A stretch of 64,000 nucleotides of DNA. Origin: a virus. The stretch is taken from the IMG/VR virus record IMGVR_UViG_3300045988_179014, positions 192,001-256,000 of that record; one strand, 5' to 3'. Shown piece by piece: positions 4,560-62,016 of this stretch (positions are counted from its first letter, which is position 1; each line of letters begins with the position of its first letter). The position numbers and the translations under genes are program-made. Under the pieces are notes generated by a model that saw only the letters and a list, made by a program, of their open reading frames with translations, was not told the origin of the DNA and ran no database searches.

Positions 4560-4651
4560 TAATTCTCCTTGCAGAATTGCGCGAACATATGCTGTACTCT
4601 ATACGGGTCAATATCAACTTAAGCGCACACCTATAAACATTTGTATACAAC

Positions 4652-4682
4652 AAAAGAGGCAGGTTTAACACCTGCCTCTTTT
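4652..4682. terminator. Rho-independent terminator hairpin (13 bp perfect stem aaaagaggcaggt / acctgcctctttt, 5-nt loop), bidirectional
   Basis: Perfect inverted repeat followed by a T-run on both strands; sits just downstream of the minus-strand gene 4711-5070. Confidence 0.6.
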
Positions 4683-4710
4683 GCCCTTCTCCAGTGGTCA
4701 GTAGGAAAAA

Positions 4711-6923: not shown

Positions 6924-6976
6924 TTGCTTGGTTTATTAGGCTAATGGCAATATCAATACCTAATACCAGCAAAACA

Positions 6977-20317: not shown

Positions 20318-22120
20318 TTACTCTGATGCTTCAATCGTTTCATTCAGGAATTCACCAGTGTTTGAATTCATTACAGTAATACGCTCAGTGGTACTGTCAA
20401 CGATTAGATTCTGCTCTTCAGCTTCTTCCCGTAAATAAGCCACTGCCGCTCCAGCTCCCCAAGGATTGAAAACAGAGGGCCAACTTTCTATCATAGTACG
20501 AATATTCTCTTCACGAATCAAATATGGTGGAATGACACTTTCCCCAAAAATTTGTCGGAATTGTCCTTCTGTACGCTCAAAGTAAATAGATGGGTGCGCA
20601 ATGGTATCTGACAAGGATTCTGATGTTGACCAAGTACGACGAAGAATACGTGTCAACTTCTGATGAGTGTAATCCTCTGGAACGGAATATGTTGGCGCCA
20701 ATCCAGTTCGTTGTTTCTGTTCCAATCGAATAATACCTGTTTGACGCAATACCCGCATAGCTTGGGTTATCTGTGATGGTGTCAATTTAAGCCAACGCGC
20801 CATTGGTTTACGTGCCATCAAAATACGAGTTGCACCAACATTTGACAATGGTTGCAGAAAATAATCCACAATTGACAAGCAGTGGAAATACTGTTGTGGG
20901 ATAGTATGTCGTTCCTTTTTTCCCAGCAAAGCCGAAGAAATTTTCCCCACATCCAATACACGCGGGTTGATGAGACGTGTTTCCCGAGTGGTTCTTGCCA
21001 TACCACCAGGTTGTGATAGTTTTCTCTCAACCCGCTTCAGATGCTCATTCAAATCAAATTCTGCATCTGTATCAAATTTTCGGTGTTGGAACAGTGTTTT
21101 CCATCCTTTGTAACAGTAGATGCCATGATACCGGGAACGTGGATGAAATCTACTTAAATCTGCTATCAAAGCACGGAATCCAATAGAAGACCCAGTATAA
21201 GAATCCTTGTCAATCCCCAACTCGATACACGCTATTGCCATGGAGTAATCATCATGACAACAATGAAGAGCAGATTTGAGGAAGGCGCGGCGTGCATGGT
21301 AGGAAGTCTCAGAACGTTGCGTGAGAGCTTTTCTGAGCAACGCTAAGACCTCGGGAGAGGGCTTCGCGTGGGAAAGGTCACCGGCACTCTCTGAGGCGCT
21401 TAGAAAGCCTTCTGGAGCTTCTTCCTGAGAACGGATGATTCTACGTCGTTCAATCCGCCTTTTCTTGGCTGTTTCCAGCTCCTCGCGCAACTGCACGACT
21501 TGAGACAGTCTTGCCATCGAATCATCAGAAATTGTAAGAACTGAGATTTTACGGACATTCTGAGAAAAACCAAACGACTCATCCGCCAATGAATAAGTTG
21601 GATGAACTGATTCTTGGTCTTTCAAAAGAATCTGACTACCAGGACCAACTACATAACCGTTGACAATTCCGCTTCGAATGTCAGCATCCAATTGTATGTT
21701 GGTTCCAGTCAATTGTGAGAAAGCTTCGGAGTATGGACGTAAAGAAGCTTTTGGTAATCCTTCATCCAATAGAGCAACTGGACGTGGGAACCTTAGATAA
21801 ACATGTAATCCGCCTGATTGGGTCATCACCGCCAAGGATTGTCGCAAATCCACTTCCAGAAACGAGCTGAAAAAATCTACTTGGTTGTGGACACTGTTCG
21901 TTCCCTTGTGATGGTCGAAATCCAGAATGAACAATTGATGTTGGGGAATGATGCCATAGTTCCCCTGCCGTGGAATGTGGAGCAGACGGTTGCGTCGTCC
22001 TGGTAAATAACTTCCCACAGGATGTTTGCTATCTGGTTGAATGCGCAAGTAACATGCATCATCCCCTAGACACTTTTCAAGAGCACGACGTAACCCATGT
22101 GGTGTGTTGAGTTCTTGCAT
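20318..22120 (-). CDS. Bifunctional primase-polymerase (PrimPol) domain replication protein
   Basis: LFILDFDHHKG ... TQSGGLHVYLRFPRP matches the Prim-Pol N-terminal domain pattern (hhDhD ... GGhHhyh). Confidence 0.55.
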   Translation of the reverse strand: MQELNTPHGLRRALEKCLGDDACYLRIQPDSKHPVGSYLPGRRNRLLHIPRQGNYGIIPQHQLFILDFDHHKGTNSVHNQVDFFSSFLEVDLRQSLAVMTQSGGLHVYLRFPRPVALLDEGLPKASLRPYSEAFSQLTGTNIQLDADIRSGIVNGYVVGPGSQILLKDQESVHPTYSLADESFGFSQNVRKISVLTISDDSMARLSQVVQLREELETAKKRRIERRRIIRSQEEAPEGFLSASESAGDLSHAKPSPEVLALLRKALTQRSETSYHARRAFLKSALHCCHDDYSMAIACIELGIDKDSYTGSSIGFRALIADLSRFHPRSRYHGIYCYKGWKTLFQHRKFDTDAEFDLNEHLKRVERKLSQPGGMARTTRETRLINPRVLDVGKISSALLGKKERHTIPQQYFHCLSIVDYFLQPLSNVGATRILMARKPMARWLKLTPSQITQAMRVLRQTGIIRLEQKQRTGLAPTYSVPEDYTHQKLTRILRRTWSTSESLSDTIAHPSIYFERTEGQFRQIFGESVIPPYLIREENIRTMIESWPSVFNPWGAGAAVAYLREEAEEQNLIVDSTTERITVMNSNTGEFLNETIEASE

Positions 22121-24321: not shown

Positions 24322-24809
24322 AATGACCTCCTATGCTCCGTTTCTTCCCTAGAATGATGGGCGCACACTTTTGTATACACATATATATTATCAAACACAA
24401 CCATTTTAAACAATTTCTCTAACATAAGTTGCCATATTGTATAACCTTCAGATGAATATATGGCCGGAGAAAACAAAGTGATTGATTCCATTCATTCATC
24501 AAATTCACACAACCACTCAATACCGTGATACATTCAACACTTCCACTGATTCATCGTTTTCGCTCAATTGAAACTCATAAAATCTTGTGAAAAATGACAA
24601 GAATAAATCCAGCTTTATCAATTATGAACACAAAAACTGAAACATAGGTATGACATTGATTATTGTGGATTTTGAAAGCAATACAACAAAAACACTAACT
24701 GTTTGCATGCACTGTATTCAGTTCATTTGCGCACTACTTCAACAGTTGTATGAATTGGATACATTTTTGCATAACATGATTGGAAGGACTTCTCGCAATG
24801 CATGAAAAA

Positions 24810-34241: not shown

Positions 34242-34576
34242 TATTTCCCATCATAAAGACATCAATAATAATCCAGTTGTTGATTGGTTCATTATAGGCA
34301 TCAAATGTTAACCAAGTTTGGGTTATGTGTCCTGTTTTAATGAGTCCCGTAGCACCACATGGTATAGGGGGACAGCAATTCAGCAACATGGCTATTTTGG
34401 TGTTAATATAGAAAAATTCAGGTTGCTGGGATGCAAAATCAATTATTGCATGAGCGACCTGATGCGTATGGGGCGAGGTTGTGTACGAAGTAACCTACAG
34501 CACAATGTTTCCTTTCATCTAATTAAAGTCAATGATAACTTTATCACTGACGTCTTCTAGTGATAACTTTATCATG

Positions 34577-34649
34577 GGTGCTTCTGGCGGGAATCGAACC
34601 CACTTACGCGGTTTTAGGGACCACTGCTTGACCATTAAGCTTCAGAAGC
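34577..34649 (-). tRNA. tRNA with anticodon CUA (amber-suppressor-like), 71 nt + CC, atypical C33
   Basis: Minus-strand cloverleaf folded by hand: acceptor GCUUCUG/CAGAAGC, D arm GCUU-AAUGGUC-AAGC, anticodon arm GUGGU-CCCUAAA-ACCGC, 4-nt variable loop, T arm GUGGG-UUCGAUU-CCCGC, discriminator A. The loop reads C-C-[CUA]-A-A. Confidence 0.6.
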
Positions 34650-34702: not shown

Positions 34703-35482
34703 TCAACTGTTTGTAAAATCAGTTTCGGCTGTCAAAGCGGTTTTTGCCAGTCCTGGACGACGTAGTGGAGGATAGATTTCTGATGCGTCCCCTGCCCGAT
34801 ATAAGTCTGATGAACGTCCACCAACAATACTTGACGTGCGTTTTGTCCCCACCTCATACAGTAATCCTGGTACTGATTGAAGTTTACGACGAAAATTGCT
34901 TGGAATGATGGAAACTCCCCACACTATTTCATAGACTCGACGTAATTCTGACATGGTGAATGTTTCATCTTCCAAAAAATGATGAGCAATGGGGCTGTAC
35001 TTAATTTTGGCTCGAACCCGCTCCAGCCCATCATGAACAATGACATCATGGTCAAATGCCAACTCAAAATCATCACTGAGAACGTCTGCAACAGGGAAGA
35101 AATGAGCTTCTGCGGCATCATCTCCGGCTTTTGGCCGTTCTACTTGTGGAGCCAATGCCACATATGCTGTAGATACCACAAAACCTCGTGGGTCTCTACC
35201 AGGATTGCCGTAGGTTTTCAACTGTTCCAAGTAGCCATCTTCAATGGTTAAATTAGTTTCTTCCTTCAACTCGCGGGCAGCTGCATCATCCAACGATTCA
35301 TTGGTGTTAACAAAGCCCCCGGGAAGCGCCCATTTTCCTTTATTCGGATGGTCACCACGTTTTATCAACAAAATACATAGTTGCCCATTCCGGATTGTGA
35401 AAATTATCAAGTCAACTGTCACACCAACAGATGGATAGTCTGACATGTTATAACCAGCCAGAAAATCTTCTTCATCAATCAT
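34703..35482 (-). CDS. NrtR-like Nudix protein (Nudix ADP-ribose pyrophosphatase domain + C-terminal winged-helix)
   Basis: Nudix box GGFVNTNESLDDAAARELKEETNL (Gx5Ex7REUxEE). The C-terminal region, including NFRRK, resembles the NrtR DNA-binding domain. Confidence 0.55.
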   Translation of the reverse strand: MIDEEDFLAGYNMSDYPSVGVTVDLIIFTIRNGQLCILLIKRGDHPNKGKWALPGGFVNTNESLDDAAARELKEETNLTIEDGYLEQLKTYGNPGRDPRGFVVSTAYVALAPQVERPKAGDDAAEAHFFPVADVLSDDFELAFDHDVIVHDGLERVRAKIKYSPIAHHFLEDETFTMSELRRVYEIVWGVSIIPSNFRRKLQSVPGLLYEVGTKRTSSIVGGRSSDLYRAGDASEIYPPLRRPGLAKTALTAETDFTNS

Positions 35483-35551
35483 TGGTACTCCTTGTTCAAT
35501 AATGCCACTACTACTATTATATCGATAAGAATCAATATGATTATTAAGGTA

Positions 35552-35758
35552 CTACCATTGCTCTGATTGAGTGATTTTATGATTGAGTCGATGATGCCAT
35601 GTTATGTGAACAGTTCTATTGGCAACCAAAGAACCACATAGAACACAGATTGATAGCACAGGTGATTCTCCGGTTTTAGGATTCAATACTGGTAGCCTCA
35701 CAAATTCTGGAACTGGGAATGATTTGAGACCCCAAGGAGATTGGCTATCTTCATTCAT
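35552..35758 (-). CDS. Small hypothetical protein (68 aa, Cys/His-containing), translationally coupled to pncA
   Basis: 4-nt overlap with the upstream pncA ORF; CVLCGS...HITWHH could bind metal. Confidence 0.3.
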   Translation of the reverse strand: MNEDSQSPWGLKSFPVPEFVRLPVLNPKTGESPVLSICVLCGSLVANRTVHITWHHRLNHKITQSEQW

Positions 35759-36345
35759 AGTATCTCAACGCCTGCTTTAAGAAAATCGTTAGTCAACAAT
35801 TTACGAACCTGTTCATTGTTAATTCCTACACAGAATCTTGACAAAATAGTAGTATGTAACCCTTCACGTACTGCATCCAAAGCCGTTTCTCGGACACAAT
35901 AATCAGTTGCAATACCCACGATAGCCACATTGTTTACGCCGAGTTCACGAAGCGCAGCAGCCAATGTTGTTCCATCTTCGGTCATTCCTTCAAAACCTGA
36001 ATAAGCTGCTGCAAACATACCTTTATGTACAGCAATAGAAACTCCACGTCCTCGCTCAGCATCTTTTCGTAATGCATTTGCTAAAGTTGGTACAAGACCT
36101 GCTCCTTCAGTATCAGCTACACAATGAACCGGCCAAGAATCAACAAAATCAGGGTTACTGGAAAAATGCGAACCTGGTTCAATATGCCAATCCTGAGTAG
36201 TGACCAGATAGTCATATTCATTCAAAGTCCCGTCATTAATCGCATCAGCCAAATCATGTGCAAGTTGAGACCCACCAGTAACGGCTAATGCTCCACCCTC
36301 TACGAAATCGTTCTGCACGTCCACAATAATCAATGCTGTGTTCAT
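35755..36345 (-). CDS. pncA: Nicotinamidase / isochorismatase-family hydrolase (PncA-like)
   Basis: ALIIVDVQNDF, catalytic-type residues (D..K..C in ...VHCVADTEG...), ~196 aa. Confidence 0.65.
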   Translation of the reverse strand: MNTALIIVDVQNDFVEGGALAVTGGSQLAHDLADAINDGTLNEYDYLVTTQDWHIEPGSHFSSNPDFVDSWPVHCVADTEGAGLVPTLANALRKDAERGRGVSIAVHKGMFAAAYSGFEGMTEDGTTLAAALRELGVNNVAIVGIATDYCVRETALDAVREGLHTTILSRFCVGINNEQVRKLLTNDFLKAGVEIL

Positions 36346-36346
36346 A

Positions 36347-36895
36347 TCATATTCCTGATTTTCTGCTTGTCCAGTTTAAATGTTCTTTCGCCCAGTCCAA
36401 TATACGAATGATATGTTTCAACTCAAGTCCATTGTGACTATTTGGTTGAATAACCAATGATGGCGCCAAGGTATTACCACGTACATGGTCTTCCCAAAAC
36501 TGTGGCGCTTTGTCATCTATCCAAACAAAAGGTCGTGGATTGTGTTGTTGGTGGTCTATGATGTAGTCTGCTTTCCACCGTGTCCAAGCTTTATAACCTT
36601 TTGTTTGAACATCAAAATTGGCAGGACTGTGTTGTGACAAATCTGCAAGACCCATTATTTCCGCTACTTTGCAAATATTGGCACCATCATTCCAAGTTGT
36701 GTGCCAAATGGAATCAAAACATCCAGTTGACAAAAGCTGCGATATCAATTGGACCGATTCCGGATTCCAATTGATTTGCGTTTTATGTGACAAAATTTCG
36801 CTATTATGTGTAGCGATACGTGCCCTAGTCGTGTTTGACGATGGCGTAATATTGTACACACCGTTGAAATCTGAGTATATTACAAAATTCATCAC
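36347..36895 (-). CDS. Hypothetical protein inside the NAD-salvage operon (possible HAD-like phosphatase)
   Basis: VIYSDFNGV weakly resembles HAD motif I; FVWIDDKAP resembles motif IV. Tightly packed between pncA and pncB. Confidence 0.3.
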   Translation of the reverse strand: MMNFVIYSDFNGVYNITPSSNTTRARIATHNSEILSHKTQINWNPESVQLISQLLSTGCFDSIWHTTWNDGANICKVAEIMGLADLSQHSPANFDVQTKGYKAWTRWKADYIIDHQQHNPRPFVWIDDKAPQFWEDHVRGNTLAPSLVIQPNSHNGLELKHIIRILDWAKEHLNWTSRKSGI

Positions 36896-37211
36896 AGGTT
36901 CCTTAAATCAGTATCCATAATGTTTCCATTTTATCCCAGACCAGAGACAACAACAAAACCTGTGCATACTGTTCTTCAAGTTTCAAGTTTTCATGGTTCT
37001 AAGCGTCAAGGAAACATTTAGACACCTTGAAACCAGCATTACAACAATTTGTACAAACTGGAGTAAATCAGTCAACATCGTTTCCAATCACGACCACAAT
37101 GAATCACGCTACATTCGTTACTCGTTTCCAACATTGTCTCGACTGGAGAAATTAAATAATCTGTTGACAGCAATCATCTCTGAAATGTTTCATTGGTTGT
37201 TGTAATATGGG

Positions 37212-38507
37212 TTATTTTTCAACAACTTCAAACATGGGTTTTCCCGCAGAAGTCAACAATGCCTCTTTGGGCAGAGTACTCAGAGTGTACGCATGAAAAG
37301 CACGAGATTCCTCTATTGTTGGAATATGGTAGTTTCCTTCATTGACATACATTATTTGTACAGGATGAATTGAACCAGATGCGATATCGTCATGCTTCAA
37401 CGACCCAATTCGATAGTATTCACCAGTCATGATTCCATGGTCATAGGTGCGATAAGCTATTTTCAGCCCGCCAGTGGTTTTCTTCCCAGATGCATTTTTC
37501 GCTACTGGAACCATCTCTCCATTACTGTTTTCCCGTTCTACCAATTTGAACACCATTGAAGCAGTTGGATGACCTGAACCAGTTACCACACGAGTTCCGA
37601 CACCAATCCCATCAACTGGTGTTCCTTGGTCAACAAGTTCCGCAATAGTGTATTCATCAATGTCCGAGGAAAGAATAATTTTAGTGTTCACAGCTCCAAG
37701 TTCATCCAACAGGTTACGAGCTTTGACGGTTTCTTCATGCAAATCCCCAGAATCTATACGAATACCACCCAAACTAGGCCCAGCAACTTCTATTGCATTA
37801 CGAATACCTTGTTCAATGTTATATGTATCCACCAGTAATGTAGTTTCAACACCCAATGCATCAATTTGTGCTTGGAAAGCAGATTTTTCATCCTCAAAAT
37901 CTAATGTGAACGCATGGGCTGAAGTGCCAGTGGTAGGAATACCATAACACAATCCAGCTTCCAAATTTGATGTGGCACTGAAACCAGCAATATATGCAGC
38001 ACGAGCAGAATCAATAGCTGCCTTCTCATGAGTACGTCGTGAACCCATCTCAATCAGTGGCAGTCCTTGAGCGGCCACAACCATTCGTGAAGCAGCTGAC
38101 ATTACAGCAGAATCGTGGTTCAGGATGGACAATAGTATGGTTTCCAACAAAACAGCATCACCAAAGAACCCTTCAACTGTCAGAATTGGACTGTTGGGGA
38201 AATAGACGTCCCCTTCACGATATCCTCTGATACGTCCACTGAATGTATAATCACGAAGATAATCAATCGTATCAGAATGAATCATTGGGTCATTTTTCAA
38301 CAAATCAAGCTGTTCTTCTGTGAACCTGAAATCCTTCACTGCTTTAACCGCCCTGTTGACACCTCCCACAACCCCATAACGGCGACCTTTGGGAAGTGTA
38401 CGAGCAAACAAATCAAATGTGGCTTTATCAAATGCATGACCTGATTCCAAAGCCGCTTGCAGCATTGTGATTTCATACTTGTCTGTTTGAAAGGCTGTAC
38501 TTGCCAT
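37212..38507 (-). CDS. pncB: Nicotinate phosphoribosyltransferase (PncB)
   Basis: N-terminal DKYEITMLQAALESGH...ATFDLFAR and 431 aa length are typical of bacterial NAPRTase. Confidence 0.7.
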   Translation of the reverse strand: MASTAFQTDKYEITMLQAALESGHAFDKATFDLFARTLPKGRRYGVVGGVNRAVKAVKDFRFTEEQLDLLKNDPMIHSDTIDYLRDYTFSGRIRGYREGDVYFPNSPILTVEGFFGDAVLLETILLSILNHDSAVMSAASRMVVAAQGLPLIEMGSRRTHEKAAIDSARAAYIAGFSATSNLEAGLCYGIPTTGTSAHAFTLDFEDEKSAFQAQIDALGVETTLLVDTYNIEQGIRNAIEVAGPSLGGIRIDSGDLHEETVKARNLLDELGAVNTKIILSSDIDEYTIAELVDQGTPVDGIGVGTRVVTGSGHPTASMVFKLVERENSNGEMVPVAKNASGKKTTGGLKIAYRTYDHGIMTGEYYRIGSLKHDDIASGSIHPVQIMYVNEGNYHIPTIEESRAFHAYTLSTLPKEALLTSAGKPMFEVVEK

Positions 38508-38848
38508 CTTCGTCTCCTTGTTGTTTGTCCGGCGTTGGAGTTACCCGGTATTTTTATGACAATAATTGGTTGTCCCCGTATCCAGTGTACCATCAACTGA
38601 AAAACTACTCACCAATCAGGGTCAAGTCAATGTTTCGCAGCAAACGACGAATCTAACGTTACAAAACCAGTTTGATTACAAATAATCATATTCTGGCGGA
38701 ACAGTTAGCAATTTGAAACAATTAACATGTTGAAGTTATTCACAGATAACACTTTGACTAACGAAAACACCCGTCTGACAACACTTGATGAAGATGGCGA
38801 TGAATAAACCATGTTGATTTTTGACAAACCGGTGAATAGCCATTCTGT

Positions 38849-39439: not shown

Positions 39440-40642
39440 TCAATCCACGTTTTTCAGTTTCAACAATGCTGTCAAAGTCATTTCCGCATCTGCTAAAGCT
39501 CTATGCGCTCCTGTATAGGACTGTCCTGATGCTTCCACCAATGATTTGTTGGTGTTGTCAGGTGTTTCGGGCAGGAAGAATGTACTGACCATGCGAGTGT
39601 CCAATACTTCCAGCCCATTCGCTTGTAATGCATTGAAACCGAAAAGATTGTGCTGCAACTGTCCAATTTCAAATTTGGCATTATGCGCCACCATGACAGA
39701 ATCACTCAACATGGACAACACCTTGGTTTGCTTTTCTGGGTCATTCACGAAAACTTCTTTGTCTTTAATCTCATCCCATGAAATATGATGAACATGCTCA
39801 GCACCAGTACCATGAACTTTGGCGAAGTCTTGAGGAACTCCACTCATGAATGACATGGTTTCAACACGACCATCTGGATAACGTTTGACAATACCTACTT
39901 CAATGATGTTTGAATATGGACCTTTGTCAACATATCCACTCTCTTGAGAAGCGGCAACCTCCAAATCAATTGATACCAAAGGTTTATCTGTTCTCAAAGA
40001 CATATTGGCCCACATATGACGGTATGCCTCAGTGCGGGTCATTCCAGTTGCCATCAAATCATCAACTTGTTTCTTCACGTCTTCAGTTGACATGCCTGAA
40101 TACGAGGAAATCACTTGATTCGCGTCGGCCTCGTTTTCAGATGTGATATCAGGGTGGAAATTGTAAGGACCGTTCTTCTTCTTTTGTTGCCGTTTCCAAT
40201 CCTCAAATTTTGCTTGATTCAATGCTTTCTGGTCATCTCTTCGTTGTTGCAATTGGGCTCGTTCTTCAGAAGACATGTATCTTTCAGCTTCACGTTCTTT
40301 AGCTGTAGCCAAGAAATTCAATTGTTTGGCTTTTTGCACCGTCTGGAACCAACGAACACTGGCCAGAGCTTCTGGATTACCTTCAGCGGTTTTCAGTTCG
40401 TTGGCCAGTTTCCACATATTCCTTTTTGCAGCCCGAGATTTCAGAAACAACTCCTCTATTCGTTCAGCATTTGATGTTGAGGACTTGGACATTGTGTTCA
40501 CTACTTGATTGGACATTCTACGTTCATATGCGTCACGTGCTTCAGCTATAGAGTTGTAGTGGAACTCATCAGAATATGGGCATTGTCGTTTAGCAGAGCA
40601 ACGATTTACAACACCATTTTGAGGGTTTAAATGAAATAACAT
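39440..40642 (-). CDS. HCCH-like N-terminal module fused to a DnaQ/epsilon-like DEDDh 3'-5' exonuclease
   Basis: N-terminus LFHLNPQNGVVNRCSAKRQCPYSDEFHY..EARDAYE. C-terminus VSIDLEVAAS (Exo I), HNAKFEIGQL (Exo II), HRALADAEM (Exo III). Confidence 0.6.
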   Translation of the reverse strand: MLFHLNPQNGVVNRCSAKRQCPYSDEFHYNSIAEARDAYERRMSNQVVNTMSKSSTSNAERIEELFLKSRAAKRNMWKLANELKTAEGNPEALASVRWFQTVQKAKQLNFLATAKEREAERYMSSEERAQLQQRRDDQKALNQAKFEDWKRQQKKKNGPYNFHPDITSENEADANQVISSYSGMSTEDVKKQVDDLMATGMTRTEAYRHMWANMSLRTDKPLVSIDLEVAASQESGYVDKGPYSNIIEVGIVKRYPDGRVETMSFMSGVPQDFAKVHGTGAEHVHHISWDEIKDKEVFVNDPEKQTKVLSMLSDSVMVAHNAKFEIGQLQHNLFGFNALQANGLEVLDTRMVSTFFLPETPDNTNKSLVEASGQSYTGAHRALADAEMTLTALLKLKNVD

Positions 40643-41051
40643 GCCATCCTCCTATTTCAATCTTACATAGTTTGTATCTAACGATTCAACTACTCATGAT
40701 TCTTTCAAGAAGTACAGTTAACCGTGATTCTGACTGATAGTGAAATCGTAGCACGCAAACGAGCAATGTTGACTACAAAATAATATTGCGTTTCCTATTA
40801 TGCCCAAACCATCCTGAAATGACTCCAATGAATGCGTGAATATGCAATTATATTTCGAATTATGGAAAGCACAAACCAAGCTCCTAGAAGTGTTTTGAGC
40901 GTGATTTTGAAGGTATCACGAAGAAGCATTTCACGTAAAACTTCTTGAAAACACGAAAAACGCCCCCGAATAGGCTTGGTAGAATCTGGGCTATTCAAGG
41001 GGCGCTACAGAAAGCGATTTTATGGTTTTCTCATACACTCATTTTATGGTT

Positions 41052-42095
41052 TCATTCCTCCATACCTTGAACATAATCGTAATAAGTCTCTGCGGCTACT
41101 GACAGCTCAGCTTGATAACGATTTTCCAGATTTGATTTGACATCGTACTGTAAAGCTTCATATCCCTTGAATGCTCCAAGAAAAGCTCCGCCAACAGCTG
41201 CTAAACTATCAGAATCACCATTGGTCCACACCAACCGTTGAATCCCTTTGTAGATGCTTCTAGAGCTGTATGCTGCAACAGCAATAATGGCGTTGTACAA
41301 TGTCTCATCCGCTACCCAACCTTCCCCAAAGAAAGAGGTCATGTCGGCTTGTGTGGGAGCATCCAGAAAATCATCCCATTTGAGGCCAAGTTGAGACAGC
41401 CCATCTCTTAGATGCTGAACACCATCTTGAGCATCCTGAACCAAATTACTAGGCATCTTGGCAATTTCGCTCAACACCAACTTGGCATAATGAATGAACT
41501 TTGGCCCAAGAACGTTTTCACTGTCCATATTGAGCAGGTCTCTGGTGAGAAGTGCTGCAAGAGCAGACGCAATCCAACCCACATGACTTCCATGAGTTGT
41601 CTGGGCTTGGATGATAGCAAGGTATACGACTGTTTCGCGGTTATACGGCAATGCTCCAAACCAAGGAGCCCGCATTACTGTTCCACAACCATTGCTATTG
41701 TTGGTTGCTCCCTCCATACCAGTAGATACATTACGAGTATTAAGATATGTTCCCAATGCTCGCATGCATGTCATACCAGGAGCGCGGTTATTCTCAAGGT
41801 CATAGTAGAAATCCACATGATGTGACGCAAAAATCATACGAATCTGGTTTTGCAAGTCCACATTCTGACCTAGTTCTTTCAAATCATCTGATGAATACCG
41901 TTTCATCATGTCTTTGATTGCGGCCAGATTGTATAGACTCATCTGTGTGTCATCAGAAACACGAAGAACATGTGGAGGTTTCACCTTGTTGCGTACAATT
42001 TGTGGATATTGCATGAACTCAGTAACATATCCCCATGCATCACCAAATGCAAACCCATATATCATACCGTCAATTTTGTTCTGGGAAATAACCAT
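41052..42095 (-). CDS. ADP-ribosylglycohydrolase (ARH/DraG/Tri1 family)
   Basis: GMIYGFAFGDAWGY and VSDDTQMS motifs; ~347 aa. Confidence 0.7.
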   Translation of the reverse strand: MVISQNKIDGMIYGFAFGDAWGYVTEFMQYPQIVRNKVKPPHVLRVSDDTQMSLYNLAAIKDMMKRYSSDDLKELGQNVDLQNQIRMIFASHHVDFYYDLENNRAPGMTCMRALGTYLNTRNVSTGMEGATNNSNGCGTVMRAPWFGALPYNRETVVYLAIIQAQTTHGSHVGWIASALAALLTRDLLNMDSENVLGPKFIHYAKLVLSEIAKMPSNLVQDAQDGVQHLRDGLSQLGLKWDDFLDAPTQADMTSFFGEGWVADETLYNAIIAVAAYSSRSIYKGIQRLVWTNGDSDSLAAVGGAFLGAFKGYEALQYDVKSNLENRYQAELSVAAETYYDYVQGMEE

Positions 42096-42226
42096 ATATT
42101 CTCGCTTTCTGTAGACTCCTCATCTGTTCAAATACTAAAACACGATTTTTGAGAGATTGGGTTCTTGTCTCTTGTTGCTGTGTATAGTATTGTCAATTAT
42201 GAGACTTGTACACCATTCATCAATGT

Positions 42227-42406
42227 TCAAGAAACCACTTTACCATCATCATCGAACTGAACCGCATGTTCTACTGGACGGGGAAGGTCTGCATGACGTT
42301 CAGGTCGTAACGCCATAGTCTCCAAATTGGCGTCAGTTGTGTCCTTGCTTCCACTTGTGTTAGGATGTTCCACGTTGAGGATGTTGTCAATCGGATTATT
42401 AGTCAT
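42227..42406 (-). CDS. Small ORF (59 aa) between the ART triplet and the ARH, with strong Shine-Dalgarno
   Basis: Read directly from the DNA: AAAGGAG, 7 nt, then ATG ACT AAT AAT CCG ... TGA. Just below the 60-aa threshold of the ORF track. Confidence 0.35.
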   Translation of the reverse strand: MTNNPIDNILNVEHPNTSGSKDTTDANLETMALRPERHADLPRPVEHAVQFDDDGKVVS

Positions 42407-42465
42407 TGAATACTCCTTTAGTTATTTATTGGCTTTTCAACTTTACCATGTTGTTTAATCTTGTG

Positions 42466-43707
42466 TCAAGCTTGTTCATCATTATCCGAAATAGACTTAC
42501 TTGGTATAGGGTCGGTTTGGGTGAAGGAATTAGTCCCATCCAAGATTTCGCCTTTGTCATTAATAGCGACCAACTGAACTATTGTTGTTGTGCCTTTGTC
42601 ATCTTCTGAACATTTGACATTTTTGTGCACACCAACAACCACGTAACGTGCTCGTCTTGGGAGAACCACTTCACGTTCACGTTCATATAGACTGACGTCA
42701 GTAACATTTACTCCTTCAGGTGTTAAAATCTCGTAAATCAAACCATCTTCGTACTCTGAATATTTATGTGCAACATCAAAAGATAAACTAGCGGATTGGT
42801 ACCCATCAAACACAACCTCTTTCCCCAAAGGCATGTTCTGGTCTACCCAATTACTGACACTACCTGCTTCATCGAATACAGAAGAATCCGCCTTCTTTCC
42901 GCGATAAAGAATTCGTTGTCTTTTAGGACCACGACTTAACGCATCATCCAAGACGCTACATATTTTGTCTATTGTTTCTTTGGTGCGAAACTTGGGCGAA
43001 ACACTAAACCCTGACAGATGAATGTTTTGTTGGTTATCTTCGTCGAATATTCCATACCCTTCTTCAGCAAATTTCTTATACGACTCATCCGGTTCTGGCA
43101 ATTCAGTATTTCTGCCATATAGAATGTTGTTGAACCACTCATAACTGTTAGAAGTGAAAAATCTGGCGGCTAATTTCTCATTCACACTTAATTTACGTAA
43201 TTCAATCTCTGATAACTTGCGTATAGTGCGAACTGGTAGCCCAATTGGTTGGTATTCATTTGGATTCTCATGCGGATTTTGAAAACCAAAAACTGAATAA
43301 GACTCTTCATTCAAATTATTGTAATTGATGATACCTCTCACATAATGAGGTGCCAAATATCCTGCTTTCACCAAATTACCACTCTGTTTTTGATAAGTAA
43401 TATTGAGCGATTCGTCTGTATAGACTTTTTTGTATAGTCTCACACGAGCCTTCCCAGCCAACTCGGCCAGTCTCTTATCATCGTAGTTATCAAAGTTGAA
43501 CTCGACAGCAGAGTATATATTTTTCATCTTTGGTGTAGATGTATTATCAGGAGCAGAAACACTACTCCTTGTTGAAGCAAGGATTGTTTCCGAAACTGAT
43601 GCAGCTTTTTTAGCGGCATAAGCTGCTCTCCGGCGAGCGTTCCGAGCTGCAATAGCTACTGGGTCTCTATGTGATGGACAACGACGTATTGAAGCTAAAC
43701 GACACAT
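42466..43707 (-). CDS. Mono-ADP-ribosyltransferase (C2/C3/iota/VIP2-like R-S-E class), paralog 3
   Basis: ILYRGK (Arg motif), GYQSAS (STS-like), EREVVLPRRARY (ExE + EVLLPR-like ARTT region). Shares the N-terminal leader MCRLASIRRCPSH.DPVAIAARNARRRAAYAAKKA. Confidence 0.65.
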   Translation of the reverse strand: MCRLASIRRCPSHRDPVAIAARNARRRAAYAAKKAASVSETILASTRSSVSAPDNTSTPKMKNIYSAVEFNFDNYDDKRLAELAGKARVRLYKKVYTDESLNITYQKQSGNLVKAGYLAPHYVRGIINYNNLNEESYSVFGFQNPHENPNEYQPIGLPVRTIRKLSEIELRKLSVNEKLAARFFTSNSYEWFNNILYGRNTELPEPDESYKKFAEEGYGIFDEDNQQNIHLSGFSVSPKFRTKETIDKICSVLDDALSRGPKRQRILYRGKKADSSVFDEAGSVSNWVDQNMPLGKEVVFDGYQSASLSFDVAHKYSEYEDGLIYEILTPEGVNVTDVSLYEREREVVLPRRARYVVVGVHKNVKCSEDDKGTTTIVQLVAINDKGEILDGTNSFTQTDPIPSKSISDNDEQA

Positions 43708-43713
43708 GTAACA

Positions 43714-44940
43714 TTACTCCCTGTTCTCAAACGGGTCGGTTTTTGGAGAGGCATTTGTTCCATCCAAGATTTCACCTTTCTCATTAATGGCCACCAACTG
43801 AACTATGGTTGTCATACCTTCGTAATCTCCTGGACATTTGACATTTTTGTGTACACCAACAACCACATAACGTGCTTGTCTTGGAAGAACTACTTCACGC
43901 TCGTTTTCATATTTACTAACGTTGGTAACATTTATTCCTTCAGGCGTTAAAATCTCATAAATCAAACCAGAACTACCTGAATATTCACATGCAACATCAA
44001 AAGATTGACTAGCAGATTGGTAGCCATCAAATACAACCTCTTTCCCCAAAGGCATATTCTGGTCCACCCAGTTACTAACGCCACCAGCCTTATTAAAGAT
44101 TGAGGAAAAACCTGGCTTTCCACGATAAAGAATTCGTTGTCTTTTAGGACCACGACTTAACGCATCATCCAAGACACTACATATTTTCTGCACTGTCTCT
44201 TCTGTACGGTATTCAGGCGGAATACTAAAATTTGATGCATAAGCGTCTTCTTGGTTGTCTTCGTCGAATATTCCATACCCTTCTTCAGCAAATTTCTTAT
44301 ACGATTTATCGGGTTTTGGCAATTTAGTATTTTTCCCATATAGAATACTGTTGAACCAATCATAATTGGTAGAAGTGAAAAATCTAGCAGCCAATAATTC
44401 ACTCACATTTAATGCATCCAACTCAACTGCTGACAAATCACACACAGTATGAACTGGTAACTCAATTGGTTGGTACCCATCTGGATTCTCATGCGGATTT
44501 TGAAAACCAAAAATTGAGTAAGACTCTTCATCCAAATTATTGTAATTGATAACGCCTCTCACATAACGAGGAGCCAAATATCCTGCATTCACCAAGTTGC
44601 CGCTCTGCTTCTGATAAGTAATATTGAGCGACTCATCTGTATCGACTTTTTTGTATAGTCTCACACGAGCTTTACCCTCCAATCCAGCCAGTCTCCCATC
44701 ATCATATTCATCAAAATCAAACTTGACAGCAGAGTATATATTTTTCATCTTTGGAGCAGGTGTATTATCAGGAACAGAAACATTGCCACTTGTTGGGGCA
44801 ACATTTGTTTCCGAAACTGATGCGGCTTTTAGCGCAGCCTTTTTCGCAGCATAAGCGGCTCTTCTCCGGGCGTTACGCGCCGCAATAGCCACTGGGTCAC
44901 TATGAGATGGACAACGGCGAATAGAAGCTAAACGACACAT
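43714..44940 (-). CDS. Mono-ADP-ribosyltransferase, paralog 2
   Basis: RILYRGK, GYQSASQSF, ENEREVVLPRQARY; N-terminal leader nearly identical to paralog 3. Confidence 0.65.
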   Translation of the reverse strand: MCRLASIRRCPSHSDPVAIAARNARRRAAYAAKKAALKAASVSETNVAPTSGNVSVPDNTPAPKMKNIYSAVKFDFDEYDDGRLAGLEGKARVRLYKKVDTDESLNITYQKQSGNLVNAGYLAPRYVRGVINYNNLDEESYSIFGFQNPHENPDGYQPIELPVHTVCDLSAVELDALNVSELLAARFFTSTNYDWFNSILYGKNTKLPKPDKSYKKFAEEGYGIFDEDNQEDAYASNFSIPPEYRTEETVQKICSVLDDALSRGPKRQRILYRGKPGFSSIFNKAGGVSNWVDQNMPLGKEVVFDGYQSASQSFDVACEYSGSSGLIYEILTPEGINVTNVSKYENEREVVLPRQARYVVVGVHKNVKCPGDYEGMTTIVQLVAINEKGEILDGTNASPKTDPFENRE

Positions 44941-44942
44941 GT

Positions 44943-46064
44943 TTACTCCTTGTTCTCAAACGGGTCAGTTTTCGGAGAGGCATTCGTTCCATCAAGAATC
45001 TCTCCTTTATCATTGATGGCAACCAATTGAACTACGCTTATTGGCCCGCTACCGGATGAAGCCATTCGTAAATCATTGTGCACCCCAACCACCAAATAAC
45101 GAGATTGTCTTGGTAACAGAACTTCTTTCTCATCCAAGAAGTCGCTGATAGATGAAATGTTAACACCTTCAGGAGTCATGATTTCAAAAACAAGACCACC
45201 ATTAGAACCAACATATGTTTTGGCAACTTCTAAATCAACACTGGATGATTGGTACCCATCGAATTTAAGCTCTTTACCCAAAGCAATGTTTTCGCTCATC
45301 CACTTTTCTAGGCCTCCAGCTTGTCTGATGAATTTGCTTTCAGCATCTACACAGCGATAAACAATTCGATTAATTTTAGGACCTTTTTCAAGTGCGCTGT
45401 CCAAAACTTTACATGTGTTACGAACTGTTTCTTTTGTACGCATTTCAAGAGGAATGTTAAAACTCATGATATAGTGCACATCTGAATAATCATTAACGAA
45501 TTCAGTTTTGGCATTACCTTCCACAACCTCGACCAAACAAGTCTCATTACCATGAAGAGCCCCATTGAACCATTCGTATTCATTGGTTGTAAAAAACCGA
45601 GTCGCTACTTGTTCTGGTAGCGACAACTTAGTCACTTCCTGCTTAGACAACTCAATTACTCGATTTGCCGGAATTGTCCTTCGTGAAAAACATTGCCTTT
45701 TGAACGGCATCTTGCCAAATCCAAATTCCATGTAACTGTTTTCATCAATGTTTTTGTGATTGATAACACCATGAAAAGTTTTCTCAGCAAAATACCCCAA
45801 CTGCACTAATGCCCCATTGTATTTATCTAAAGTTAAGTTTAGTTTCTGGTTGTTTTCAGTTGATACAGACTTGAACAAGATGTCCCCAGATTCTCCTTGA
45901 AATTCACCATCGAATGTACGAGAAGCGACAATTCCTGAAGTATTTGACTCTTGTGAAGCTTTTTCTAGTTTTCTGGCATGATAACGTTCTCGTCTCCGGG
46001 CGTTCCGGGCTGCAATAGCTACTGGGTCACTATATGATGGGCAACGTCGATTTTTTCTACACAT
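44943..46064 (-). CDS. Mono-ADP-ribosyltransferase, paralog 1 (more diverged)
   Basis: RIVYRC, GYQSSS, DEKEVLLPRQSRY; N-terminus MCRKNRRCPSYSDPVAIAARNARRR. Confidence 0.6.
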   Translation of the reverse strand: MCRKNRRCPSYSDPVAIAARNARRRERYHARKLEKASQESNTSGIVASRTFDGEFQGESGDILFKSVSTENNQKLNLTLDKYNGALVQLGYFAEKTFHGVINHKNIDENSYMEFGFGKMPFKRQCFSRRTIPANRVIELSKQEVTKLSLPEQVATRFFTTNEYEWFNGALHGNETCLVEVVEGNAKTEFVNDYSDVHYIMSFNIPLEMRTKETVRNTCKVLDSALEKGPKINRIVYRCVDAESKFIRQAGGLEKWMSENIALGKELKFDGYQSSSVDLEVAKTYVGSNGGLVFEIMTPEGVNISSISDFLDEKEVLLPRQSRYLVVGVHNDLRMASSGSGPISVVQLVAINDKGEILDGTNASPKTDPFENKE

Positions 46065-46178
46065 ATGTTATATTCCTTGACTATCTGACTCGTCGTCCCC
46101 TATATATCGTTTTATCAGATAACCATAATCATGTCCACTAAAAACAATCAACTTGTCAACAAAACTTCATCAAACGAG

Positions 46179-46811
46179 TCAAATAATACGTTTTGTACTG
46201 TCATTCTTGTCAACAGTGTGCACATCCCCGCCAATGAATCCAATAGTGATGTGAAAATCCTTGGGCGGCAACCCTGCATTTCGTCGCCAAGCATTCATGA
46301 CAGGCGATTTGACCAATATGTACCAAGCTTCTTTTTCCCCATCTCTTACACTGCCAACCCCATCCAATGTGAAAGACATGGAAGTATCAACAGGCAATGA
46401 AACACCAGATTTACGAAGCTGTCTGGTTTCTTTGGGAGTTAACAAAGTCACGTGAAAATAATAACCACCATCGCGTTGTATTTTTGCTGTCTCCATGGCC
46501 TCTGCTGTTTCAGCTCCTACATGTTGCCGCCATGCTTGCAAATGCTCTTGTAAAAGAGTCTCAGAAACCTTGACACCAACATATGAGTTATATTTCAAAC
46601 CTTGTGCCACGTTTTTGAACTCAGTTTGTGGCAATCCAACCCGAACCGACTGTTTCCGTAAACGTTTCAACGGCTCTTGGCTATTGTGGTAGGCTTTTTC
46701 GGCATCTGACAAACTGTTGAAATGTTCACCCTTCTTGCGACAATTCCCTGGTTTGGCTATACATGGTTTAGGCCCGTCATCCGTCATATGGTACATGGTC
46801 CTATTCCTCAC
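46179..46811 (-). CDS. HCCH-like N-terminal module fused to a 2H phosphoesterase (LigT/CPDase-like)
   Basis: N-terminus MYHMTDDGPKPCIAKPGNC...HF. Two H-x-T-x motifs: FHVTL and FHITIG. Confidence 0.6.
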   Translation of the reverse strand: MRNRTMYHMTDDGPKPCIAKPGNCRKKGEHFNSLSDAEKAYHNSQEPLKRLRKQSVRVGLPQTEFKNVAQGLKYNSYVGVKVSETLLQEHLQAWRQHVGAETAEAMETAKIQRDGGYYFHVTLLTPKETRQLRKSGVSLPVDTSMSFTLDGVGSVRDGEKEAWYILVKSPVMNAWRRNAGLPPKDFHITIGFIGGDVHTVDKNDSTKRII

Positions 46812-47966
46812 TCAAATTTTTGTTCTACACACGGGTCCGATGTTTCCGTGTTTAAGAGGCTGTCCACAACGTATACAACAACCTGAATTCCAAACAGTGG
46901 TTACCGCAGGTTCAGGATATGAAGACACTGTGGAAGGGTCCTGTGGCTCAGTGTGTTCAACTGTTGAAACCAATAATCCTTCCCGTTGGAACATTTGTAT
47001 CACACGAGGACGGTCATCAATAGCACCAACTACAGCAAAACCTTCAGCTCGCAGTTTTTTCAACTGTTCTAGCTTGTATTCTGTATCAGTACGATAATCA
47101 TTCAACCGTTTCAGCAACAATTTACTAACCGGGGCATCAACACGTTCCAGAAAATTAATGGTCTCTTGTGCATAGTTATCCGTTCTTCCAGACAATGCAA
47201 CAATGTTTATACCTTCAGCTCGCATTTCACGAATCAGATTCAATACTTGTGTGTTAACTGGAGCATATTCAGCCGCTTTGTGGAACTTGTGAAAATTCTT
47301 CTTCTGCCCAGGAACACCAAAAGCCTCATTCATATCTTTTTGGTTGTGAGCCAATGTCCCATCCAAATCCACCAACATAATAGCATTCCCTATCATTGGA
47401 TAACGTTGAGACATTTCCTCATCAAATTTCGCTATCCGGTCCATGCCATCAGTGTGAAACGGAACCACTGACACTTTTCCAGATGTTTTGGAGACAATGT
47501 ATTCTTTCAAATGCCCCTTGTCATCATAAGCTTTCTGGGCCATAGCATCAATAACATGTTCTGGAACGCAACGCCCACCTTGTTGACCACGAACAATATT
47601 TCGCTGTTTACACACATCAACAGGAACATCAAAATACAACTGTTCAATCTCAGCATTGTAGATTGAGGCCAAATTGTGCAAATGTTCCACCACGTTACGA
47701 TTCAAATTGGTATCATCTGAGATAACATGTTTTCCAGCAGCCAATCCTTGACGAATCAACTCATCCTGCACTGCTGTTACCTGTTCTTCACATTTCTTGC
47801 GAGGCGATTGGTTATGATACTCGCTACCGAACAACGCAGTACGAATGTCATCACGATTCACACGAACAGTGTTTTCAGGGTCAGACGCAACCATTTGTTC
47901 TGCCTGAGTGCTTTTACCCGACCCTGGAAGCCCGTGCGTCATGGTGAAACGCGGATTACCGCTCAT
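46812..47966 (-). CDS. Polynucleotide 5'-kinase/3'-phosphatase (T4 Pnk-like) with C-terminal zinc-ribbon tail
   Basis: GLPGSGKST, VNRDDIR, ISDDTNLN (kinase); MLVDLDGTLA, ALSGR, AIDDRPRVIQMFQREG (HAD phosphatase). Collinear with T4 Pnk motifs. C-terminal CCIRCGQP...CRTK. Confidence 0.85.
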   Translation of the reverse strand: MSGNPRFTMTHGLPGSGKSTQAEQMVASDPENTVRVNRDDIRTALFGSEYHNQSPRKKCEEQVTAVQDELIRQGLAAGKHVISDDTNLNRNVVEHLHNLASIYNAEIEQLYFDVPVDVCKQRNIVRGQQGGRCVPEHVIDAMAQKAYDDKGHLKEYIVSKTSGKVSVVPFHTDGMDRIAKFDEEMSQRYPMIGNAIMLVDLDGTLAHNQKDMNEAFGVPGQKKNFHKFHKAAEYAPVNTQVLNLIREMRAEGINIVALSGRTDNYAQETINFLERVDAPVSKLLLKRLNDYRTDTEYKLEQLKKLRAEGFAVVGAIDDRPRVIQMFQREGLLVSTVEHTEPQDPSTVSSYPEPAVTTVWNSGCCIRCGQPLKHGNIGPVCRTKI

Positions 47967-48029
47967 ATTTATATCTCCTGGTTGTCTACAATTAGTAACA
48001 TATCAGGGTATCTTCCACACCATAGATTG

Positions 48030-61452: not shown

Positions 61453-62016
61453 TTATGGATACACAATGACAGAGGTGACAAAGCTCCAAGGAACATACTG
61501 GGTTAGAATCACATCATTCAAGGTTTTGTAAAACTTCAATCCTGCTGCTTGCATTGCATTACCATCAATGCTCAGTACAACAGGTATGCTCTTATGTTGA
61601 CGGGCAGCAGATAATGCTATTTTCTCATCTGATGACAAATGCACAAACAGTCGTGAACCAGGAACAATACCCCATTCACGGATAGTGCCTACTTTTGATG
61701 CTGTGGTGCCATGATAAATAGTTCCAGGATTGTCAACTGAATCTAATTCTATGGTTATTGGAATAGAATGTCCTTCAGTAGCCCAAACACGACCATTAAC
61801 AACAGCATAATGACCACTGCTATCTTCATCAACAATTTTATGAATCATGCTTTCAGAAGTGTTCAATGCTTTGGCTAAATCTGTAACTTCAACTGAACCA
61901 TCCTGGTGCATATCAACTTGATACTGTTCAGGAGCATGACATAGGGCCTGATTCATTTGTTGGGACAATTCAGTCAATTCCATGTCTCTCCTCAATTCCT
62001 CGATATCATTGTTCAA
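61453..62016 (-). CDS. kptA: RNA 2'-phosphotransferase Tpt1/KptA
   Basis: IYHGTTASKVGTIREWGIVPGSRLFVHLSSDEKIALSAARQHKSIPVVLSIDGNAMQAAGLKFYKTLNDVILT is collinear with E. coli KptA (LYHGT ... HYVHLSADE..A..VG.RHG.PVIL.V ... GV.LT). Confidence 0.8.
   Translation of the reverse strand: MNNDIEELRRDMELTELSQQMNQALCHAPEQYQVDMHQDGSVEVTDLAKALNTSESMIHKIVDEDSSGHYAVVNGRVWATEGHSIPITIELDSVDNPGTIYHGTTASKVGTIREWGIVPGSRLFVHLSSDEKIALSAARQHKSIPVVLSIDGNAMQAAGLKFYKTLNDVILTQYVPWSFVTSVIVYP

Follow-up and report, generated by a model that had tools for sequence, protein, structure and literature searches.

The stretch of DNA analysed here comprises 64,000 nucleotides (positions 192,001 to 256,000 of IMG/VR record IMGVR_UViG_3300045988_179014; hereafter the window) and is a 64-kb part of a 337,400-bp metagenomic contig present in several assemblies. 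Between positions 34703 and 38507 it carries, on the minus strand, five genes that constitute an NrtR-associated Preiss-Handler cluster for the salvage of nicotinamide adenine dinucleotide (NAD+) on a giant phage-like element. A first-pass annotation made from the sequence had placed five minus-strand open reading frames (ORFs) at 37212-38507, 36347-36895, 35755-36345, 35552-35758, and 34703-35482, and all five are present. In the direction of transcription they encode the nicotinate phosphoribosyltransferase (NAPRTase) PncB, a phosphatase of the HAD superfamily, the nicotinamidase PncA, a small conserved protein (s68), and a regulator of the NrtR family composed of a Nudix and a winged-helix domain. 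The genes had been described as tightly spaced, which is accurate for HAD, pncA, and s68, which are translationally coupled (a 1-nt gap between the former two and a 4-nt overlap of s68 with the pncA stop), but not for the 3′ side of pncB, where 316 bp intervene, nor for the 5′ side of nrtR, which is preceded by a 69-bp regulatory gap. Comparison with L179, a 95.5%-identical relative, yielded ratios of nonsynonymous to synonymous substitution (dN/dS) between 0.07 and 0.33 (pncB, 0.13; HAD, 0.24; pncA, 0.07; s68, 0.33; nrtR, 0.13), and all five genes are therefore under purifying selection.

The identity of the 431-amino-acid (aa) product of the first gene (37212-38507, minus strand) as PncB is borne out by the NCBIfam equivalog model NF006698, whose cut-off is passed over the full length (577.2 bits against 531; residues 2-428 on profile positions 13-434 of 440), and by TIGR01513 (400 bits against 297). 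Its best match in the PDB is the NAPRTase of E. faecalis (2F7F, 3.8e-60). A GTSAH motif starting at residue 194 aligns with GTHAH of 2F7F and keeps the conserved histidine, which in the GTxAH motif of characterised NAPRTases is the autophosphorylated residue. PncB is thus predicted to convert nicotinate and phosphoribosyl pyrophosphate (PRPP) to nicotinic acid mononucleotide (NaMN).

The 196-aa product of pncA (35755-36345, minus strand) matches the Isochorismatase family with 76 bits, and its best match among solved structures is PncA of M. tuberculosis (3PL1, 5e-48). Nicotinamidases are divided from other isochorismatase-like hydrolases by a metal-binding Asp/His/His(/His) site. Residues D52, H54, H60, and H74 align with the metal ligands D49/H51/H57/H71 of 3PL1, and D9, K108, and C151 align with its catalytic triad D8/K96/C138, such that all seven catalytic and metal-binding residues of the mycobacterial enzyme are present. 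Since triad and metal ligands are kept, placement in a non-nicotinamidase subfamily of the isochorismatases can be set aside, and the protein is predicted to deamidate nicotinamide. Proteins of 445-447 aa in which a PncA-like isochorismatase is fused to Nudix and NrtR_WHD domains occur in the database (P0065, P0067, P0072, P0075, and P0077); this Rosetta-stone link argues that PncA and the regulator work together.

The regulator itself (259 aa; 34703-35482, minus strand) combines a NUDIX domain (PF00293, 70.2 bits) with an NrtR_WHD domain (PF21906, 44.6 bits against a cut-off of 27) and aligns end to end with NrtR of Shewanella oneidensis (3GZ5, 5e-36). Its Nudix box, GGFVNTNESLDDAAARELKEETNL at residues 55-78, is intact, as had been claimed together with the NrtR-like winged helix: measured against the canonical G-x5-E-x7-REUxEExGU, it is complete (G56-x5-E62-x7-R70 E71 L72 K73 E74 E75) with only the final glycine replaced by asparagine. 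Residues E62, R70, E71, E74, and E75, as well as an NFRRK stretch (196-200), are invariant in 32 relatives. An intact Nudix signature correlates with ADP-ribose (ADPR) pyrophosphatase activity in this family (PMC2330246). Because the box is intact, the regulator probably also hydrolyses ADPR to AMP and ribose-5-phosphate. Auto-repression and release by ADPR have been demonstrated experimentally for other NrtR proteins (PMC2330246, PMC6800001), and by analogy the regulator described here may respond to the same ligand.

A likely operator supports the view of the Nudix-winged-helix protein as a DNA-binding regulator. NrtR operators are lineage-specific palindromes of 21-23 bp (PMC2330246, PMC6800001). 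When seven divergent cassettes were scanned for 21-bp palindromes, one motif recurred, TAAnnATCAnnnTGATnnTTA; the 64-kb window contains one zero-mismatch site for it, TAAGAATCAATATGATTATTA at 35526-35546, past the stop of s68 and ahead of the start of nrtR. With a weight matrix trained on the sites of other elements only, this site scores 23.9 bits; 2.56 Mb of composition-matched simulated sequence contained no site of 22 bits or more. Upon leave-one-out scoring, six of the nine sites reached at least 21.5 bits, and the other three (11.7-15.0 bits) rest mainly on position. Within 243 kb of element loci, sites with 0-1 mismatches are confined to positions upstream of pncB, HAD, pncA, or nrtR; 1.45 Mb of other loci contained none. 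The palindrome recurs in related elements of 340-730 kb: equivalent sites precede one or another of these four genes in L002, L010, L092, L174, L175, and L176, and a variant with the same TCA-N3-TGA core precedes both pncB and nrtR in L178. Cellular nrtR homologues show, in the 200 nt preceding them, a 5.7-fold enrichment of the GC-rich form TTnTCGTCA-N3-TGACGAnAA. Many NrtR sites have a GT-N7-AC core, which was seen only in one unrelated palindrome of L175. The position of the site is likewise suggestive, as a TATAAT -10 hexamer read from the sequence (35516-35521, minus strand) begins 4 bp downstream of it, followed by an AGGAG ribosome-binding site (35488-35492) before the nrtR ATG, and at seven of the nine sites the palindrome is located 4-14 bp upstream of a -10-like hexamer. 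These findings lead us to regard the 259-aa protein as a DNA-binding NrtR and the palindrome at 35526-35546 as its candidate operator.

The second-best matrix match in the window, TAGGTATGACATTGATTATTG at 24645-24665, is intergenic and lies downstream of gyrB. It scores 12-14 bits (12.2 when the window site is left out of training) and is probably noise, because matches at such a score arise by chance about once per 19 kb.

The candidate operator precedes nrtR only. No operator is present upstream of pncB or HAD in the window, where the best scores are 4.5 bits (pncB) and 8.2 bits (a half-site before HAD). The cassette can thus not be described as one operon under NrtR, as had been proposed; as judged from these sites, the regulator appears to control itself but not, detectably, the salvage enzymes.

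The order PncB…PncA…NrtR is kept across related elements whose regulators are 53-97% identical, while the intervening genes vary. The fullest form is found in L178 (PncB, a 66-aa ORF, NadE, HAD, PncA, a 67-aa ORF, NrtR); L002-L007 have PncB-NadE-PncA-s68-NrtR, the window shares PncB-HAD-PncA-…-NrtR with L010 and L174, and L176 and L092 are reduced to PncB-PncA-NrtR. Where relatives have an ORF of about 66 aa and NadE, the window has 316 bp of non-coding DNA (36896-37211, minus strand) with stops in all three frames. Neither tblastn nor six-frame reading detected a remnant of NadE or of the small ORF in this gap, which holds the half-site-like operator remnant at 37000-37020 (8.2 bits). The gap is, to judge by its position, a scar of the lost small ORF and NadE, since relatives keep these genes between pncB and the next gene. 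NadE has been lost independently in another lineage: in L175, a 92-aa ORF at 8056-8334, upstream of pncA, matches the NadE C-terminus and is a remnant, the sole remainder of NadE there. Searches of the 64-kb window by tblastn with NadD and NadE of Bacillus phage G and NadE of L002 as queries gave no match at E <= 0.01. The complete Preiss-Handler set (PncA, PncB, NadD, and NadE) is hence not found within the window. The first-pass annotation had seen a self-contained circuit in these genes and their neighbours, which does not hold, because in a window lacking NadD and NadE the pathway stops at NaMN.

Upstream of pncB lies a conserved leader, CCGGGTnnCTnnnACGCCGGnnAAAnAACAAGGAG (38514-38548, minus strand), which stops 6 nt short of the ATG of pncB, where translation of the operon begins. 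It occurs once in the window, with 0 occurrences expected by chance, and recurs in the pncB-operon leaders of L010 (6098-6117) and L174 (3847-3866 and 4209-4228). Its CCGG/CCGG stem is invariant and its loop variable among the four copies, which are too few for a covariation test. Comparison with Rfam gave sub-threshold matches only, the best of which, cow-rumen-1, was far below threshold. The pncB gene itself is interrupted in several relatives. In L007, an IMG/VR relative of 398 kb, it is split (3399-5044) by an inserted gene for a 509-aa TnpB/Cas12f-like protein (PF07282, 54.9 bits), and it is also split in L093 when compared with L092. In L179, one extra T in a T-run near position 2840 (about codon 119 of the window pncB) causes a frameshift. 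As the remainder of the gene is under purifying selection, this frameshift may have arisen very recently or may be an artefact of short-read assembly at a homopolymer.

The two remaining genes encode proteins of less obvious function. The 182-aa ORF (36347-36895, minus strand) had been noted as present and of unknown function; the former is correct, while the latter can be replaced by assignment to the HAD-superfamily phosphatases (HAD_SAK_2-like; PF18143, 31.4 bits against 27.5). Its family is small and consists of stand-alone phosphatases (657 cluster representatives) that carry all four HAD motifs. The alignment places in the window protein the nucleophile D8, T65 and T66 of motif II, K107 of motif III, and D126 and D127 of motif IV. 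Motif I, however, reads DxN (SDFNGV), such that the four-motif pattern of the family is incomplete: asparagine occupies the position of the second aspartate, the general acid/base, as it also does in a 92% relative. DxN was found in 3 of 154 representatives of the family against DxD in 132, and because of this replacement normal HAD phosphatase turnover is doubtful. Compared by fold, an AlphaFold 2 model (mean predicted local distance difference test score 83.7) was closest to capless HAD phosphatases of a generic kind, among them MDP-1 (template modelling (TM) score 0.51), and these matches, with TM scores of about 0.5, are weak.

The s68 protein (68 aa; 35552-35758, minus strand), which had been singled out as a Cys/His ORF, is indeed a conserved CxxC…HxxxH protein. 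Its invariant signature, NPxT…C-x2-C-G-x8-H-x3-H, suggests that it is probably zinc-binding. Homologues occupy the same position in five cassette variants (L002-7, L010, L174, L176, and L178). The family has no match in Pfam, NCBIfam, or PHROG, and a homology search returned two relatives in the database and no informative fusions.

A tRNA with a CUA anticodon, i.e., an amber suppressor, is located at 34577-34649 (minus strand), 53 nt downstream of the nrtR stop, in agreement with the suppressor-like tRNA described there before (ARAGORN; Rfam tRNA, 54.4 bits). A tRNA(CUA) follows nrtR in five elements with regulators that are 71-97% identical, namely the window and four relatives (L179 6346-6418; L178 7140-7214; L010 10855-10930; L174 10764-10836). 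Compensatory changes affect 11 of its 21 stem pairs, and the CUA anticodon is invariant. Directly 3′ of the tRNA, two copies of the palindrome TGATAAAGTTATCA form a hairpin (34528-34575, minus strand; 17-bp arms and a T-rich tail) that was detected as an inverted repeat as well as a terminator-like match and is probably the terminator of an nrtR-tRNA unit. Global recoding of TAG in the window is unsupported, as coding density is 88% with the standard code and read-through would add short tails, s68-nrtR excepted. The targets of the tRNA are therefore presumably located elsewhere on the element.

The s68 stop codon, a TAG at 35552-35554, is in frame with nrtR (35482) over 23 stop-free codons, and its suppression would yield a 351-aa s68-NrtR fusion. 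This relation is not seen in L002 or L010, and by our estimate it would arise by coincidence in roughly one in ten cases. One could imagine NrtR as a phage sensor of NAD+ cleavage, with ADPR derepressing nrtR and tRNA(CUA) and so coupling NAD+ status to TAG read-through. In such a scheme, ADPR produced by the firing of a host NADase defence or by the element's own ADP-ribosyltransferases (ARTs) would lift repression, which in relatives would switch on the whole cassette; in the window lineage, nrtR and tRNA(CUA) would form one unit, being 53 nt apart with no terminator between them; and the products of read-through would include the s68-NrtR fusion, and suppression could extend to late genes with TAG codons on other parts of the element. 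We regard this scheme as a long shot.

Other genes of the window are predicted to act on NAD+ or ADP-ribose, and those named in the first-pass annotation all exceed Pfam thresholds. Three ARTs and an ADP-ribosylglycohydrolase (ARH) form a block at 41052-46064 on the minus strand. The ARTs (44943-46064, 43714-44940, and 42466-43707) match ADPrib_exo_Tox with 39.9, 24.6, and 28.6 bits against a cut-off of 23.4, and the ARH (41052-42095) scores 128 bits. A Tpt1/KptA RNA 2′-phosphotransferase is encoded at 61453-62016 (minus strand; PF01885, 88.1 bits). The block that comprises RNase T, ARH, and the three ARTs (39440-48000), between the 2H-SAK and p167 genes, is missing at that position in L002-L007 and behaves as an insertion/deletion module adjoining the NAD cassette.

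The element itself is likely a giant phage. Nearly all genes of the window lie on one strand, and besides the above they encode DnaG, GyrB, ThyX, PNKP, a 2H-SAK phosphoesterase, and RNase T-like exonucleases. An 832-aa RIIA-like protein (17667-20165) matches phrog_612 with 6e-40. Just downstream of it, a 600-aa ORF (20318-22120) without family match could be a divergent RIIB. Relatives of the element measure 180-730 kb and are found in IMG/VR, as viral genomes, and in metagenome assemblies; GenBank phages contain no near-identical DNA. The RIIA-like protein, the relatives in IMG/VR, and the parallel cluster in Bacillus phage G argue for a phage nature, and on balance phage is favoured over conjugative plasmid. 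Identity with the giant oral element "Inocle" was rejected on base composition (GC content of 24-32% in Inocle and 41% here). The host is likely to belong to the Actinomycetota, because the nearest cellular relatives of the regulator are all from this phylum (45-55% identity), PncA is nearest to the mycobacterial enzyme, and one relative of the element has LGFP and Rv3811-like cell-wall domains.

The cellular relatives also bear on the history of the regulator. None of 80 cellular Actinomycetota loci shows synteny of the regulator with pncA, pncB, or nadE, its neighbours being SPFH/Band-7 genes and unrelated enzymes. In this NrtR clade, the coupling to pncA and pncB seems to have arisen on the elements. 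In Lentzea (L018 5016-6137, minus strand) and Nocardioides (L038 4851-5942, minus strand), the closest cellular homologue of the regulator is divergently adjacent to an SPFH/Band-7 gene and separated from it by the palindrome TTnTCGTCA-N3-TGACGAnAA, an arrangement that may correspond to the uncharacterised nrtR2<#>nrtX-nrtY group of Rodionov et al. A metagenome scan with the regulator alignment gave, among the matches listed, mainly distant cellular relatives.

In our view, the cassette probably serves a giant phage-like element as a module for NAD+ recycling, equipped with an NrtR-family repressor. We hold this reading with moderate confidence, and it draws on gene identities, catalytic residues, the conservation and position of the operator, synteny, and purifying selection. 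PncA would deamidate the nicotinamide set free by NAD+ cleavage of any origin, be it host NADase defences or the three ARTs and Tpt1 of the element, and the resulting nicotinate would be joined to PRPP by PncB (with ATP) to give NaMN. The NadD and NadE steps would fall to host enzymes or to genes on other parts of the element, since NadE, which in relatives stands between pncB and HAD, has been lost from the window copy. A dimer of NrtR would bind at 35526-35546, overlapping its own promoter, and would be released by ADPR, by analogy with characterised NrtRs. Its Nudix site would split ADPR into AMP and ribose-5-phosphate, the latter feeding PRPP. In relatives, in which an operator also precedes pncB, pncA, or HAD, the whole cassette would be ADPR-inducible; in the window, the operator would govern nrtR and possibly tRNA(CUA), with pncB and HAD-pncA-s68 transcribed from other promoters.

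Several observations count against a recycling module of this kind. Without NadD or NadE in the window, NAD+ would not be rebuilt by these genes alone, and without an operator before pncB or HAD, induction of the salvage enzymes by ADPR is unsupported for the window copy. The HAD protein has asparagine in place of the general acid/base, and no defined step of the pathway can be assigned to either this protein or s68. For PncA, the best NCBIfam match, the nicotinamidase model PRK11609, is of E. coli type and scores 103.9 bits against an equivalog cut-off of 174. For the regulator, NCBIfam NF050029 gives 158.5 bits against a cut-off of 400 (residues 3-230 on positions 4-225 of 245); on this account the 259-aa protein is filed as a member of the NrtR family, on the basis of its Pfam architecture and the operator evidence, and not as an equivalog of the curated protein. 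Its closest cellular homologues adjoin an SPFH/Band-7 gene and not NAD genes, such that its effector specificity is extrapolated. Finally, the 64-kb window encodes TraG/TraD-like and TcpC-like proteins, and genes for a capsid or a terminase were not seen there; the phage nature of the element, likely as it is, is thus not proven.

The same observations can be arranged into other explanations. The cassette might serve the element's own ADP-ribosylation machinery rather than counter-defence, allowing sustained ART activity combined with detoxification instead of replenishing a depleted NAD+ pool. Nicotinamide is a product inhibitor of ARTs and sirtuins; PncA would remove it, the Nudix protein would clear free ADPR released by ARH and by products derived from Tpt1, and PncB would prevent a build-up of nicotinate. 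The three ARTs, the ARH, and Tpt1 are all encoded within 4-27 kb and share the same strand, genes of ADP-ribose metabolism stand beside the cassette elsewhere (Macro and ART in L092, NADAR in L175, KptA in phage G), and the absence of NadD and NadE from the window fits clearing better than rebuilding. However, L002-L007 keep PncB-NadE-PncA-NrtR with no ART/ARH block beside it, and PncB, at the expense of ATP and PRPP, would be a costly means if removal were the sole aim. The presence of NadE in relatives and of NadD and NadE in phage G points to NAD+ synthesis as the ancestral purpose. We consider a function in support of the ARTs possible, yet unlikely.

The losses that the window copy has suffered could also mean that it is a decaying remnant of a pncB-nadE-HAD-pncA-s68-nrtR cassette without a working pathway, of which single activities such as those of the Nudix protein and PncA are still useful. 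NadE and the small ORF after pncB are gone and 316 bp of non-coding DNA are left, the pncB operator is lost with a half-site alone remaining before HAD, the HAD protein bears the rare DxN substitution, and pncB is interrupted in L179 (T-run frameshift), L007 (TnpB insertion), and L093 (split gene). This explanation is improbable given that the five genes are intact in the window with dN/dS of 0.07-0.33 against L179, that the catalytic residues of PncA and PncB and the Nudix box are all kept, and that the L179 frameshift may be a homopolymer error of short-read sequencing. Even less probability is assigned to a giant conjugative plasmid on which the cassette would be ordinary accessory metabolism enabling the host to use nicotinamide or niacin. 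Such a plasmid would account for the 579-aa TcpC-like protein and the 804-aa TraG/TraD-type coupling ATPase at 5184-9391, adjoining DnaG, for the PcfJ and ArdC-N domains found in relatives, and for a window in which capsid and terminase genes were unseen. It is harder to reconcile with the RIIA-like protein (phrog_612, 6e-40), with relatives that are IMG/VR viral genomes, and with a content of PNKP, 2H, Tpt1, ART, and RNase T genes typical of jumbo phages (PMC7824862); moreover, the nearest plasmid match of the TraG-like protein is 28% identical over half its length, and the identity with Inocle fails on GC content.

The interest of an NAD+ recycling module lies in its possible role in conflict with the host. 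NAD+ depletion is among the commonest outcomes of bacterial anti-phage defence, and since 2024 experiments have demonstrated three pathways by which phages rebuild NAD+; a PncA/PncB route with its own ADP-ribose-type regulator would, if true, add a fourth and inducible strategy. It would also be the first example found in which a phage has both the transcription factor belonging to a host metabolic regulon and operators that match it. Sharp predictions follow, namely a defined operator sequence, a -10 element at a distance of 4 bp, activity of the Nudix box, and reliance on NadD/NadE from the host. The value of the finding is tempered by a canonical gene set, by precedents in phage G and metagenomic jumbo phages, and by the loss of NadE and of the pncB operator from the window copy.

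The suggestion that the arrangement represents a distinct solution is not sustained, since the cluster of phage G, the Preiss-Handler clusters of jumbo phages (PMC11662467), and bacterial nrtR-pncA-pncB regulons (PMC2330246) all precede it. Such regulons, as well as the logic by which ADPR yields ribose phosphate and hence PRPP, were described by Rodionov et al. in 2008 (PMC2330246), and the mechanism proposed here is essentially their bacterial model moved to a giant phage. Both systems feature the same three families in a cluster, a 21-bp palindrome in promoters, auto-regulation of nrtR, ADPR as proposed inducer, and intact-Nudix NrtRs proposed to hydrolyse ADPR and to feed PRPP. In contrast to the bacterial regulons, the present genes reside on a giant phage-like element, the operator (TAAnnATCA-N3-TGATnnTTA) is without the common GT-N7-AC core and precedes nrtR only in the window copy, a conserved HAD protein and s68 are added, and the closest cellular relatives of the regulator (Actinomycetota, 45-55%) are unlinked to NAD genes. 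In the NrtRs of Shewanella and Mycobacterium, the Nudix box is degenerate and hydrolase activity is low or absent (PMC2330246, PMC6800001), whereas the window protein keeps a canonical box. The best solved-structure relatives remain M. tuberculosis PncA (3PL1, 5e-48) and S. oneidensis NrtR (3GZ5/3GZ6, 5e-36).

Among phages, the gene set of the cassette is not new, because it already occurs in Bacillus phage G and is listed for gut jumbo phages (PMC11662467). Phage G (NC_023719), a cultured 497-kb jumbo phage, encodes a Nudix protein with an NrtR_WHD domain (gp273, 44% identity) and, within 6 kb of it, an isochorismatase (gp275), a NAPRTase (gp277), and KptA (gp280). Its 7-kb cluster (gp273-gp283) differs from the window in the addition of NadD (gp281) and NadE (gp283), which makes the Preiss-Handler pathway complete, in the lack of a HAD or s68 homologue, and in a reversed order with the regulator first; identities are 28-44%. 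No discussion of the phage G regulator was found in the literature, nor any description of an NrtR with its operators on a phage. A 2024 survey of gut jumbo phages (Microbiome, PMC11662467) lists clustered pncB, nadD, and nadE along with pncA in "NAD-jumbo phages" and proposes an independent NAD+ supply; it differs in resting on annotation only, with main clades whose predicted hosts are Bacteroidota and with operators, HAD, and s68 unmentioned, and NrtR appears neither there (0 occurrences) nor in the jumbo-phage survey of Iyer et al.

The statement that phage NAD+-reconstitution pathways use different enzyme sets holds for NARP1 (Adps and Namat), NARP2 (NAMPT and NMNAT), and NARP3 (PnuC and NadR). 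None of these families occurs among the five ORFs or among the Pfam annotations obtained for other genes of the window. Like the cassette, the NARP pathways comprise phage enzymes that rebuild NAD+ precursors after NAD+ cleavage. Unlike it, they belong to unrelated enzyme families, end in NAD+, and defeat NADase defences in experiments, whereas the cassette would proceed via nicotinate, ends at NaMN, and includes a transcription factor. To the canonical cluster it adds a predicted operator, a conserved HAD protein, a small protein of zinc type, a leader that is likewise conserved, and a neighbouring suppressor tRNA.

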